Origin: Octopus vulgaris
Taxonomy: Eukaryota
Direction of reading: 5' to 3'
NCBI GenBank assembly: GCA_951406725.2
Contig: OX597832.1
Location: forward strand, 60,140,001-60,204,000
DNA: 64,000 bases
Made by a program: the position numbers and the translations under genes. Shown here in pieces: positions 15,108-50,893 of this stretch. The notes under the pieces were generated by a model that was not told the DNA's origin, did no database searches, and saw only the letters and a list, made by a program, of their open reading frames with translations. The first letter of the stretch is position 1. Every line of letters starts with the position of its first letter.

Positions 15108-15300
15108 TCCCCCTAGCATTGCATGACAACCGATGCTGGTGTGTTTACGTCCCCGTCACATAGCGGTTCGGCAAAAGAGACCGATAGAATAAGTAGTGGG
15201 CTTACAAAAAGAATAAGTCCCGGGGTCGATTTCCTCGACTAAAGGCGGTGCTCCAGCATGGCCGCAGTCAAATGACTGAAACAAGTAAAAGAGTAAAAGA

Positions 15301-15301
<1 letters not shown>
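14864..15301 (+). mobile_element. SINE family B, near full length
   Basis: ggagtggctgtgtggtaag head, internal (TG)n, tail (gtaaaaga)2. Confidence 0.88.
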
Positions 15302-15342
<41 letters not shown>

Positions 15343-15346
<4 letters not shown>

Positions 15347-16083
15347 TAAGCAATTAAGGGTTTAGCAACGAATTGCCTTACCGCACACCGAATTTAGAAA
15401 TAGCAGTCAAAGAGATTATAGCTATTTCTTCTACTAAAAGGGAGATCTCAGTAAAAACACAGCATTTGAAAGGCAAACACAAACAGGTAAGAGAGAATGA
15501 ATTAACGGCAATCTATCATACAGTTTTAAGTCACCTACGGACGTACGTTTCGAGATCAAGTCTTAGGAAAGCATAAGAATTAGATAATTCTACCTTACCC
15601 ATACTTCTTCTCTCATCAGCGCAGGATACAAACAATCATGAATGATTGTATATTGAATTTTGAGATACTAGAAGGCACCAACTCAACTCAGTATCAGAGC
15701 GAGCTAGAAGCCACAGCTAGTATCACCAAATTCAAAGTGTGAATGAAAGTTTGTGTCACCAGTCTTTTCCCACCCGCGTGTAGCCAAGACAAAGTGCTGT
15801 GGTCATTTACTGGGATGAATATGGTTATCAGTAACAATGAAGGGTGAAATTAATTAATTTGGAATAATTATCAATTACACCAAGTAGTCTTCGGCATGTA
15901 AAAGCCTCATTCGAGGAAAATTTAAGTAATACTAAGCAATTAAGGGTTTAGCAACGAATTGCCTTACCGCACACCGAATTTAGAAATAGCAGTCAAAGAG
16001 ATTATAGCTATTTCTTCTACTAAAAGGGAGATCTCAGTAAAAACACAGCATTTGAAAGGCAAACACAAACAGGTAAGAGAGAA

Positions 16084-16088
<5 letters not shown>
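15343..16088 (-). mobile_element. Retrozyme / Penelope-pLTR-like non-coding element: 586-nt unit with 160-bp direct terminal redundancy, inserted in (TA)n
   Basis: 15343-15502 appears identical to 15929-16088 (ORF track repeats MPYRTPNL... at 15373 and 15959); (TA)n on both flanks; contains canonical HHR. Confidence 0.8.
15534..15625 (-). ncRNA. Canonical type I hammerhead ribozyme with long stem II
   Basis: Minus strand CCTGCG-CTGATGA-GAGA...(extended hairpin)...TCTC-GAAA-C-GTAC-G-TC^CGTAGG; stem I 6 bp (one G.U), palindromic loop III, GUC cleavage between 15540/15539. Confidence 0.9.
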
Positions 16089-16130
<42 letters not shown>

Positions 16131-16133
<3 letters not shown>

Positions 16134-16405
16134 TTTTGTTTGTTCCTTCTCGAGCACCGCCTGGCTCATAGGGCCACTTTCCCGGTTTCCTTGGCGTATA
16201 GGTTCCCCACCTGGACGGGAGGCAAGTCTGTCGCAGGTGAGCCGCAAGATGCAGGAGGAAAGAGTGAGAGAAAGTTGTGGCGAAAGAGTCAGCAGAAGTT
16301 CGCCATTACCTTCTATCGGAGCCGCGTGGAAATTAGGTGTTTCGCTCATAAACACACACATCGCCCGGTCTGAGATTCGAACCCGCGATCCCTCTAGGCC
16401 ATGTG

Positions 16406-16408
<3 letters not shown>
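16131..16408 (-). mobile_element. SINE family C variant (V-domain-like 3' part)
   Basis: B box gggttcgaatctc; body shared with 18595 and 32647 copies; cctgcgacagacttgcctcccgtccagg segment. Confidence 0.75.
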
Positions 16409-16472
<64 letters not shown>

Positions 16473-16491
16473 GATATATATATATATATAT

Positions 16492-17123
16492 ATACATGCC
16501 TCACGCTAAGAGGGACATCAGTCATTTCTACCAAAAAATCATACCCAATGCAATTTTTCAAAGCAAGACATTTAAAAAAATGAATTTAGTCTTGTATCAC
16601 CTGTGATTTCGCACTTACCGCAGAGTTGCGACCATGCTCATCAGCAAGACTGATTCTGAACATATCATAAATAAACGACCAGTACCGTCAAAGTCGAACA
16701 GCCATCTGCTCTATTCCAACGAAGCACATGGAGAAGCTTACATATCATACATCCGGTAAATGGCGGGCTTCTTCGAATTGCATTTCGGGTAGGAAAAGTT
16801 TTTTCGGAATAAATTTAACAATTAAGGATAACTTCTTAATAAGGAATCTTAACAAGAAATTATCAGGTAGATAGCGTGAAAGACCTCATAAGAGAAAAAT
16901 TTCGAAAATAATTCTTTCTTATTGAACATATTAATTTATATATAGAGGGCATTATTATACATACATGCCTCATGTATGTATAATAATGCCCTCTATATAT
17001 AAATTAATATGTTCAATAAGAAAGAATTATTTTCGAAATTTTTCTCTTATGAGGTCTTTCACGCTATCTACCTGATAATTTCTTGTTAAGATTCCTTATT
17101 AAGAAGTTATCCTTAATTGTTAA

Positions 17124-17129
<6 letters not shown>
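16492..17129 (-). mobile_element. Retrozyme / Penelope-pLTR-like element: 469-nt unit, 12-nt redundancy, 159-bp perfect inverted repeat, inserted in (TA)n
   Basis: atacatgcctca at 16492 and 16961; arms 16809-16967 and 16971-17129 with 3-nt spacer; (TA)n on both flanks; canonical HHR inside. Confidence 0.8.
16588..16651 (-). ncRNA. Canonical type I hammerhead ribozyme
   Basis: Minus strand AGTCTTG-CTGATGA-GCAT-ggtcgcaactctgcggtaa-GTGC-GAAA-TCA-cagg-TGA-TA^CAAGACT; stem I 7 bp perfect; AUA triplet, cleavage between 16595/16594. Confidence 0.9.
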
Positions 17130-17173
<44 letters not shown>

Positions 17174-17484
17174 TTTATAAAACATACAATTGTTTCGGCA
17201 AACAGCCAGCATTATATAAATGCTGCTTGAAACATTATATAATCTTTTTAAAACTCCTCATCAGTGTTCACCAAAGAAGAGAATCAATAGTCTTAAAAGC
17301 TATATATATTCCTGTTATGCAAATTATCAACAACATCGCTGACGATACAAGTAGTAAGAGATAAACAAACAAATCACAGAAATTCAAAGCAATGCCTTCC
17401 TCCAAATCGAAGTAGGCCGATACTAACCATTTATTTCAGCCCCGCACTATTGCCAACATATACAATAGAGAGGAGGGAAGGGGA

Positions 17485-17530
<46 letters not shown>

Positions 17531-22027: not shown

Positions 22028-22742
22028 CGAGGGGAAGTCAAAAGTTATCTGCTCTTTTGCCTCAGCATATTTTTGTTATTGTCCCACTGCCTTCTGCGCA
22101 TGCGTGCTTATAGTTGGTACTGTTGTTGTCATGTGATAGAAGTTTGAGCCTAATCGCGCCATTTTTCTTTCTGGCTTCACAGTGTAAGTATGGCCGCTCC
22201 ACTAGCAATGTGCATCAAAGTAGAACAAAGAGCAGTGATCTCATTTCTCTGGAAAATGGGTCAACGATCAACAATGCAAGATACAGTTCTTTGCTGGCCA
22301 ACAAACTGAAGCCAGTAATTTGCAACAAAAGCCGAAGCCTATTGTCGAAGAAAGCTTTGTTGTTGCATGACAATGTACGCCCATACACGACCGTCCAGAC
22401 CGTTGAAACCATTAACCAATTGGGTTTTGAGATGCTGGTGCATCCTGTCCACGGCCCAGATCTCGCCCATTCAGACTATCATATCTTTGGATCGCTCAAA
22501 GATAGTTTACGAGGTCATCGATTTCCTATGGATGAAGATGTGAAGGAAGCGGTGCATAAATAGTTGTGTGACTGACCAAATACCTTCTTCTTGGAGGGAA
22601 TACGCAAGCTTGTGGACCCCTGGACCAAGTGCATCGAAAAGGAAGGAGACTGTATAGAAAAATGAGGTACTTGTTTATCCCCGGCTTTTGGGGGAATACA
22701 TTAAAAAAAACAAGAGTGAGTATAATTTTTGACTCGCCCTCG
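22028..22742 (+). mobile_element. Internally deleted mariner (DD34D) transposon with TIRs and TA TSD
   Basis: TA|cgaggggaagtcaaaagttat ... ataatttttgactcgccctcg|TA; translation LLLHDNVRPY...HPVHGPDLAHSDYHIF with 34 residues between the two D; stops and deletion present. Confidence 0.92.
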
Positions 22743-47891: not shown

Positions 47892-48410
47892 ACTGTTCTT
47901 AACTGATTGGAAGTGTTATCATGTACATTGTTTTGTCTTGGTATAAAAGATGGGTTACAGCAAATATTCTACTCAGTACCACAGAGTTGCTTGTCAGTTG
48001 TTTGACCATTACCTGTTGAGCATGTCCCTTAGTGCCTGACGATATGTCCATCTCTGATCACGAGCAGAAGTAGCGGGGAAGCATCATAGCCATGTGTTGA
48101 GTGGAATTCTTTGGGATTTGGATAATTCACCTTCGGAAACATGAGTGTTTCGTTCAACATCCTTAAACAACCCTTATTCAGGGACCTTTTGAACGGGGTG
48201 GGTTACTCCACCTGAAGAAAATTCTAACTGGGCCCCACCTGCAAGGTCATGCACTGTTTATCTTGATATGAGATAACCATGTCGCGCACATATGGTTGTG
48301 ATGCAAGCGGCTAGTGTACCCTTATCAGACGGGTAGTCATGATGGGTATACTGGGCTTCGTATATCTTAACCCAGTGTCACTTTCATGGCATGCACTGCC
48401 CTCTCACTCA
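47892..48410 (+). mobile_element. (TAA)-tailed retroposon 3' fragment, copy 1
   Basis: Collinear with 51036-51502; ends gcatgcactgc.ctctcactcaat followed by (GAT)(AAT)n. Confidence 0.7.
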
Positions 48411-48422
48411 ATGATGATGATG

Positions 48423-48521
<99 letters not shown>

Positions 48522-48539
48522 TTAAGGAATAACAACAGA

Positions 48540-49056
48540 AAAAGATGGTATAGGCACACACCAGAAAAGGTCACAGAAAACGAGAAAGCAACCATACTCT
48601 GGGATATGCCAATACACACAGATAGAGAAATTAAGGCCAACAGACCAGATATAGTTGTCAGAGATCATGAAGAAAAAAATGCTTTCTAATTGATGTATCA
48701 ATACCAGCAGATGACAACGTGTCTCTAAAAGAAATGGAGAAACTTTCAAAATACAAAGACCTGGGAATAGAGGTAACCAGAATGTGGAATCTAAAAACAG
48801 AAACAATTCCTATCATAGTAGGTGCATTAGGCATGATAAAAAAATATTCAGACAAATACATAACAAAAACACCAGGACTTACAAACACATATAACATACA
48901 GAAAATTGCACTACTAGGCACTGCACACATCCTACGCAGAACACTTTCCATACAATAACCATCAGAGCATCACAACAAATCACAGCACATTCCCAAGGCA
49001 CACAGAGCTGCGCTCTGTAGTGAAGTGAAAGCACGGTATAAAAATAAAACTACGGA
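48540..49056 (+). mobile_element. R4/Dong-clade non-LTR retrotransposon 3' end (restriction-like endonuclease domain)
   Basis: WYRHTPEKVTENEKATILWDMPIHTDREIKANRPDIVV...(frameshift)LIDVSIP...KEMEKLSKYKDL...IPIIVGALG...IQKIALLGTAHILRRTL; PD..D..K..KY motif; (TAA)n on both sides. Confidence 0.88.
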
Positions 49057-49114
49057 ATAATAATAATGATAATAATAATATTTTAAAAAATAATGATAAC
49101 AATAATAATAATTA

Positions 49115-50893
49115 ATTGGCAACAAAAAATAAGTCATTTATTTTATATGGATGACTTAAAACTATGGCAAAGACGATGAGCTTGGAAGACTACTACATAC
49201 TGTGAAAGCATTCAGTGGTATCATCGGGATGGAATTTGGTCTTGTAAATGTACCAGGGTCACTTTCCAGAAAGGGAAATTGAGGACTTCACTTTCAATGG
49301 CGCTGGATGTTGACCACAGTCATAAAAGAACTCGAGCAGGAACAAACTTACAAATATCTCGGAATAAATAACGGCTCTGGCATGTAACATGCAAGTATGA
49401 AAGAGATCAGGAGACAATGTTACAGAAGAGTTTGAGCAGTCTGAAAATCCGAGTTAAATGTACGTAACAAGGTGTTCACTATAAATCCCTTAGCAGTTCC
49501 GGTTGTTATTTATAGTTTGAATGCGTTGAACTGGAATATGAGCAAAATAAATAAGATTGACAGGAAAATCCGTAAGCTGCTGGCTTGCAATGAGATGCAG
49601 ATCGTCTTTACCTACCCAGAGCTCAAGGAGATCGAGGCTTGATGCAGTTTGAAATCTCTTACAAAACCACCACAATCGGACTGGCAAAATATCTTGAAAC
49701 ATCTAACGACTGGATCCTAAAACCCGTTGAAAACCACGTAAAAGTAAAAAAAAAGCTTCATTCTGTTATGAAGGAGAGCAAAAAATTTTCAAGTGAGTTT
49801 ATGCACAATATCCAGGTTGAACAACATGATGGAAGTGCGGCAACTGCAGCTGCAAAGCAGGTGAAATCAATATCAAAGCAAACTGCGTTTGAACAATTTG
49901 AACAATTAGCTGATACGTGGGAACAAAAATCTCTGTATGGCAAATATGTGGCCCGTAGCAAACAAGCTCAATGTAAACTAGAAGCAAACCCTTCAGTGAC
50001 CACGGCGCTCAGTGCTAAAGGCAGAGAGTGAAGGCTTTATCTTGGCTGCCCAAGATCAGAGCATATTGATCAGGAACTATCAAGCCATGTGCTAAAAAAT
50101 GGTGTAGACCCAAAGTGCCAATACTGCAACGATGGGATTGAAACAGTGGATCGCCTAATCTCTAGGTTTAAGGTTTTAGCACCTGTAGAGTACAAATCAA
50201 GACATGACAGGGTTGACCAATATCTACGTTGGATAATGTGTCAGCATTATAAAATCAAAACTGCTGACAAATGGGACAATCACAACCCTCAGGCGAGGGA
50301 GAAAAGGTGACGATTCTTTGAGACTTCCCAGTATTTACAGGCCGGACCATCAAAGCAAATAAACCAGATTTTGGTGTGAAAGACCAAAACAATACAGTCT
50401 GTTTATTGATTGACATGAATATACACTGTGACCATAATATCTCGGAAAAAAAGAATTTCATAAGCTCAGAAAATATAACGATTTGCTAATCAAAAAGATG
50501 TGGCATCTCAAGGGGGTTACAATACCAGTGATTGTAGTTGCACTTGGAATGAACAAAAAAGGAACTGGAAATTATTTAAGAATGATCCCTGGTTTACCAT
50601 CCATGCAGGAAATGCAAAAGATTGTCTTAACTGGTATGTCACGTGTACTGAGAAGAGCATCGTCGAGGTGAATTTTCTTTTCTTTCTCCCCATTTACTTT
50701 CTTTATTCACTTTTTTACTTTTTAGTTTTTCCTTTTTCTCTCTGTCTTTCACCCCCTTTTTCTCTATCAGACGAATTTGTAAATGAACAATCCGGTGTGT
50801 TTAGTTTAAGGCTTACCAATGTATACAGTACGTTTCTCTGCCCTAGGTATCAGGAAGACACTCAGCAAGAAATGAAGACAGAATCGAAAGAAG
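49115..50893 (+). mobile_element. Decayed R4/Dong-clade element (RT C-half, CCHC remnant, REL)
   Basis: ISHLFYMDDLKL (YMDD at 49144-49155), YKYLGI, EGFILAAQDQS, CQYCNDGIETVD...YKSRHDRV, ANKPD, TIPVIVVALG, MQKIVLTGMSRVLRR; many stops and frameshifts; (TAA/GAT)n flanks. Confidence 0.88.

Follow-up and report, generated by a model that had tools for sequence, protein, structure and literature searches.

The analysis bears on two questions, how animal retrozymes move and what purpose the hammerhead ribozyme (HHR) of Penelope-like elements (PLEs) serves. Animal non-LTR retrozymes, as described in two reports (Cervera and de la Pena 2020, PMC7229834; 10.64898/2026.07.22.740005), are low-GC tandem repeats that encode no protein, carry a type I HHR, are present as monomers to multimers and co-occur with PLEs. 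Li, Clavereau and Pollet 2026 (10.64898/2026.07.22.740005) argued for the identity of retrozymes with PLEs and left the mechanism open. The EN+ PLEs (Neptune/Nematis; Poseidon PAc, PMC11167929; PMC8557442) are characterized by partial tandems, an inverted truncated partner, an optional tail, an HHR located upstream of the reverse transcription (RT) starts, AT-rich or (TA)n targets and no discernible target-site duplication. In vitro work on a lizard PLE demonstrated two internal RT starts separated by a 'tail' (PMC11167929), and PLE inverted partners with the tail at one end have likewise been described (PMC8557442). Finally, the non-autonomous Chlamys PLEs, e.g., MRC1, are ORF-less, multicopy and arranged head-to-tail with pLTR-like redundancy; their 3' ends are in general similar to those of autonomous partners, and a canonical HHR is missing from most Chlamys elements (PMC8557442).

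An element combining many of these features lies at 15343-16088 of the window, i.e., the whole 64,000-nt stretch of Octopus vulgaris DNA analysed here (Table 1). The first-pass annotation had described a 746-bp insert in (TA)n with redundant 160-bp ends and a period of 586, and this description holds in full: the first 160 bp (15343-15502) and the last 160 bp (15929-16088) are 100% identical at a spacing of 586, and a (TA)22 tract is found on either side, both boundaries being ambiguous by a few bases due to TA microhomology. The absence of a credible ORF stands as well, since the longest ATG ORF of the 586-nt unit, read as a circle, has 34 aa. The GC content of the element is 37%, and no target-site duplication of the 4-bp type was detected. 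The two TA tracts (15302-15345 and 16087-16130) are of equal length with 22 repeats each, which may be chance or a duplicated target.

Table 1. Features of the insertion and its flanks, in window positions
Feature	Positions	Strand	Remark
(TA)n target, left flank	15302..15344	.	
Fixed end, site 1, inferred first RT start; conserved ACCCU ~12 nt inside	15341..15364	-	
Family A insertion, 1.27 units (q1-586 then q1-158)	15345..16088	-	RNA sense is the minus strand
Single complete 586-nt unit, non-coding, strong predicted fold	15345..15930	-	Folding z about -6.4 as a circle, -7.0 linear
Type I hammerhead; core intact, stem I of 6 bp, stem II of 61 nt, stem III palindromic	15534..15625	-	
CACG-containing motif; candidate internal promoter element (inferred)	15770..15781	-	Kept in 7 of 7 unit representatives
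Site 2, q475-490, fixed end in other copies; second ACCCU motif after conserved hairpin	15819..15849	-	
PLE-type 'tail', 105 nt separating the two start sites; internal in the window copy	15826..15930	-	
Predicted 9-bp long-range helix, 15970-15978 with 15890-15898	15890..15978	-	Conserved, 14 aligned copies, several families
Partial second unit (terminal redundancy); far end is the variable, truncated end	15931..16088	-	
(TA)n target, right flank	16087..16130	.	

Searching the genome (2.8 Gb, 227 contigs) with the 586-nt unit returned 1,965 first-look candidates, a figure not equal to the copy number, and scoring of 40 of these gave 110 matches, the full-length ones being 97-99% identical. 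An exact 28-mer spanning the HHR cut site occurs 406 times genome-wide, and (TA)n is joined to site 1 in 161 reverse-strand matches (589 on the forward strand, redundantly counted). Judged from the 406 cut-site 28-mers and the 161 reverse-strand joins, the family to which the insertion belongs, here family A, is one of several hundred young and dispersed insertions, in agreement with the initial description of a retrozyme-like, ORF-less element. Multimer arrays of two to five units, reaching up to 5.2 turns, are present at other loci, while the window locus contains one HHR. Family A is part of a larger clade: a motif common to its sister families has 12,355 genome matches against one for a control, and closed units were obtained in 41 distinct forms, from which seven representatives of 553-588 nt (one deleted unit has 539) are collinear throughout at 52-90% identity. 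Sister units at 55-59% identity are likewise closed and without ORF. Among the sister families (L327-L356 and the motif listing), tandem periods of ~547-594 nt were observed, and the HHR cut and the conserved end motif lie 130-135 nt apart in every copy in which both were found.

The ribozyme on the minus strand consists of stem I (15625-15620 / 15539-15534), the core CTGATGA (15619-15613) and GAAA (15551-15548), stem III (15547-15542) and C17 at 15540, with the predicted cut between 15540 and 15539. It had been annotated as a canonical type I HHR, of which topology and core are confirmed; stem II, instead of ~4 bp, is a hairpin of 61 nt. A structure descriptor found three HHRs in the window versus two matches in total across 20 simulated 64-kb sequences. 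Rfam returned no match for the window at gathering threshold and 51 matches in 15300-17500 at E<=10, none of which is a hammerhead at the 15534-15625 element. According to the folding model, the active monomer fold lies ~3 kcal/mol above the minimum fold, and a modelled dimer pairing via the palindromic stem III in active topology is 8 kcal/mol better than two monomers, so that the modelling is consistent with the earlier proposal that stem III favours dimers. Stem I shows differing yet complementary sequences across four lineages (compensatory changes), stem III is palindromic in most lineages compared, and one sister family has a variant HHR core. Within family A, variation amounts to 0.3-1.1% in the core and stems I and III versus 1.0-3.3% in the remaining unit; this low variation and the covariation across families are the reasons why the ribozyme appears to be kept. 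At the first position of stem II (unit position 268) A replaces G in 30 out of 93 family A units, e.g., at L059 and L295, which breaks the usual G10.1-C11.1 pair, and activity may differ between subfamilies.

The insertion ends were examined in 60 distinct insertions (overlapping loci removed) comprising 87 arms, from loci picked by best match and therefore biased towards young, long copies. Arms start at q1-4 (site 1) in 54 cases, with two more at 9 and 13, at q475-490 (site 2) in 22 cases and elsewhere in nine, these being mostly short inverted pieces, whereas the opposite, variable ends are scattered from 23 to 586. A (TA)n target flanks 48 of the 60 insertions on both sides, 11 on one side and one on neither. 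The circularly permuted endpoints anticipated by the first-pass annotation were not borne out: 76 of 87 arms start at the two fixed sites, and TA junctions occur at site 1 but genome-wide at none for the one internal control site, which rules out random circular permutation as far as this single control goes. Its other suggestion, that a length of more than one unit arises by reverse transcription across the unit junction, is supported. In all 19 head-to-head insertions, site 1 and site 2 occupy opposite outer ends (two of the site-1 ends being eroded, to q13 and q43), and the 41 remaining insertions start at site 1 in 36 cases, at site 2 in three and at neither in two. The same one-tail rule applies to 14 of 16 inverted pairs from three coding PLE families (one pair has both tails, one was called as having neither) and to eight of eight inverted pairs of family B, an element neighbouring the insertion. 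This strict assignment of a separate start site to each target strand goes further than the formulation that the tail is often at one end only. Judged by the copies themselves, the two-start tail anatomy of family A is a PLE signature, and the element is classed here as a non-autonomous PLE, i.e., an animal retrozyme; the insertion anatomy thus ties a retrozyme to the two-start mechanism of PLEs.

Compared with the systems described above, family A has one HHR per unit, tandem monomers to multimers, no coding capacity and no LTR features, as animal non-LTR retrozymes do, and at the same time the fixed 3' end, optional tail, 5' truncation, inverted partner and microsatellite or AT-rich target without clear target-site duplication that define non-autonomous PLEs. 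A plant LTR retrozyme, with type III HHRs in its LTRs and a 4-bp duplication, was considered and rejected, as family A has a single HHR of type I and no duplication. At 586 nt the unit is longer than the coral, mussel and axolotl retrozymes (220-400 nt), but the earlier view that its length is unusual is not supported, since published non-LTR retrozyme consensuses span 51-972 bp. The 61-nt stem II distinguishes it from the animal retrozymes as far as these are described in the sources compared, and the PLE two-start anatomy and (TA)n targeting, evident in family A, are absent from the portions of retrozyme text compared. Moreover, family A lacks pLTR homology to the examined coding PLEs, while 24 out of 57 Xenopus families match known TEs, nearly all of them PLEs (10.64898/2026.07.22.740005). 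It shares the listed features of EN+ PLEs but is without ORF, and its tail measures 105 nt versus 30-40 nt in the literature and ~37-55 nt in the coding PLE families described below; additionally, its HHR core is canonical, in contrast to the variant core of two of the three coding PLE families found in this genome. Likewise, it resembles the Chlamys elements in its ORF-less, redundant head-to-tail organization but carries an HHR and, within the scope of that comparison, shows no 3' resemblance to an autonomous partner.

Family A narrows the template question to a circle versus an uncut multimer. A single copy genome-wide ends exactly at the HHR cut and two more within 12 nt, as against the 406 sites that are read through, on which basis cut linear RNA is, for the genomic copies considered, not the usual template. 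A pile-up of ends at the cut was also ruled out, with two of 87 arms within 10 nt where ~3 are expected. Unit divergence is 0.96% (direct) and 1.2% (inverted) within an insertion and 2.6% between insertions. Within L281 (five units), L282 and three of the four L295 units, full units are separated by 0-2 substitutions, and those of L296 by 1-4, versus 6-26 differences between units of different arrays; the fourth L295 unit has 11 changes from its neighbours. Inverted insertions have private variants common to both arms. These array-specific variants, with mostly 0-2 differences within and 6-26 between arrays, fit the copying of each array, in different subfamilies, from a single monomer. The simplest account of such homogeneous arrays would be a monomer that is ligated and then copied by rolling, so that a circular template is favoured. 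Rolling of this kind was already proposed for PLEs and retrozymes (PMC4209133 and PMC7229834). Contigs of four presumed-RNA runs cover the unit at low summed depth, although contigs cannot reveal strand, ends or circles.

The RNA itself may contribute to where copying begins. The unit folds more stably than its shuffles (z of -6.4 as a circle and -7.0 linear), and a hairpin plus an ACCCU motif precede each start site. The predicted long-range helix pairs the sequence before site 1 with the tail after site 1 in 14 aligned copies from several families and, because its strands flank site 1, would form only across the unit junction. Most pairs of the junction structure are invariant, with a double change in 4 of 25 and a covariation term of -0.28, so the modelled junction-spanning structure is plausible, though not proven. 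Pol III A and B boxes were not found in the unit, and its RNA strand contains four T4-5 runs.

Taken together, we consider it rather probable that family A is a young, ORF-less HHR repeat in (TA)n that is mobilised in trans by a PLE RT/GIY-YIG protein, with a circular monomer RNA as the probable template. A donor with at least two ribozymes would be transcribed, the ribozymes would cut as a dimer via the palindromic stem III and free a 586-nt monomer, and ligation would close this monomer into a circle. The PLE protein would then bind the structured domain spanning the junction and nick the (TA)n tract, and reverse transcription would start internally at site 1 and roll for a variable length, which is 1.27 turns in the window copy and reaches 5.2 in other copies. 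Where the other target strand primes as well, it would use site 2, and the resulting head-to-head copies would carry a tail on just one side. The window copy has one ribozyme and no 3' tail, and its sole head-to-tail junction is separated from the truncated end by 158 nt; it would for these reasons release no circle and, as linear RNA, give short copies only, making it a likely dead end.

The strongest competing explanation, which we regard as rather unlikely although it deserves serious weight, is a non-autonomous PLE copied from uncut linear multimers, with no circle, a dispensable ribozyme, and arrays arising via re-priming, self-insertion or local expansion. It draws on in vitro work on a PLE in which HHR cleavage was unneeded for insertion, HHR mutants inserted normally and uncut RNA was the dominant template (PMC11167929); similarly, eight of nine Xenopus retrozyme dimers showed no cleavage (10.64898/2026.07.22.740005). 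Read-through of the cut site is what it would lead one to expect, possible donors exist in the form of tail-bearing multimers, the odd L295 unit fits an insertion into an older copy, and homogeneous arrays could come from local expansion or assembly polishing. However, each array, across subfamilies, has its own shared variant set together with the anatomy of a fresh insertion, linear copying alone would only shorten copies, and the HHR core with stems I and III is less variable than the remaining unit and covaries across families.

A further question is whether the unit is in fact part of a coding PLE. A GIY-YIG search and its follow-ups yielded three young PLE families, whose ORFs are intact and have 781, 811 and 1312 aa, so that autonomous PLEs co-occur with family A in this genome; the 781-aa family has RT and GIY-YIG domains by Pfam, and all three have the CxxxxCxxC linker of the Neptune/Nematis type, (TA)n ends and optional tails of ~37-55 nt. 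Many intact ORFs of these families were seen (L111-L126, L177-L193 and L254-L265, respectively), each family has a variant or minimal hammerhead-like motif near its 3' end, and the reading frame of the 1312-aa family starts in the pLTR end and continues through the tail. Blastn of the element against the loci of these three and of older GIY-YIG families, as well as a covariance model of its end domain (66 sources), found it there as separate neighbouring insertions only, and tblastn of L001-L080, L214-L253 and L327-L356, which took in 39 of the 60 family A insertions, detected PLE ORF pieces only on the other strand or past the TA tract. A unit joined to an RT and GIY-YIG ORF was thus not seen at the loci examined, nor was 3' similarity to an autonomous partner among the three young and several older PLE families compared. 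At L226/L254, a sister family seemed to be connected with the 1312-aa PLE but is an insertion of its own, lying beyond the TA tracts.

That the insertion is an ordinary pseudo-LTR fragment of an autonomous PLE outside the families searched is therefore judged improbable, given these tblastn results, the exact 586-nt period, the sequence past the tail that re-enters the unit and contains no ORF, and the closed, ORF-less sister units; its anatomy is nevertheless that of a PLE pLTR plus tail, and the partner search took in three young and several older families, whereas 31 recently active PLE families are reported for one octopus (PMC13282606). An assembly duplication, or a satellite that expanded locally and resembles a ribozyme by chance, suggested by the fully identical ends and the microsatellite-rich region, is very improbable and already at odds with the family-level data, as copies with varied lengths and inversions are dispersed over many contigs, the HHR covaries, and four out of four other sequencing runs (three labelled as other organisms) have contigs containing the 586-nt junction.

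Going beyond mobilisation in trans from a circle, we tentatively put forward, at somewhat less than even confidence, that the clade has long lived as a viroid-like circular RNA that parasitizes PLE enzymes, has lost its sequence kinship to current coding PLEs but keeps its own structured RT-loading domain at the junction, and that one PLE dimer primes both strands at two sites of the circle. If true, rolling-circle reverse transcription of animal retrozymes would for the first time be directly recorded in a genome, and a 586-nt substrate would be defined together with three intact candidate enzymes. For such work, the genome supplies intact ORFs of three PLEs, and the element a short RNA with two mapped start sites and a predicted helix at the junction. 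Literature on hammerhead ribozymes or Penelope in octopus and cephalopods yielded no paper on family A, and the word 'ribozyme' is absent from the accessible portion of a 2026 octopus repeat annotation (PMC13282606). Family A may be new, as a family within an established type of element (animal retrozyme), though it may be catalogued already as an unnamed repeat.

In the window, three distinct HHR elements, all on one strand, are located within 1.8 kb. Family B (16497-17129) is the second and is unrelated to family A; with a unit of ~480 nt, 2,154 candidates and a minus-strand HHR at 16644-16595 with a 4-bp stem III, it displays a two-start anatomy like that of family A, and its inverted arm, which bears the tail, constitutes the perfect 159-bp inverted repeat at 16809-17129. 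The third HHR, also of type I and on the minus strand (17264-17185), has a palindromic stem III and belongs to an older element at 17172-17400, the relatives of which are 70-86% identical and had no PLE ORF in 15 loci. Elsewhere in the window, ORF fragments at 22114-22563 and 48315-50031 resemble a transposase of the Tc1/mariner type and the remnant of a non-LTR reverse transcriptase, respectively.
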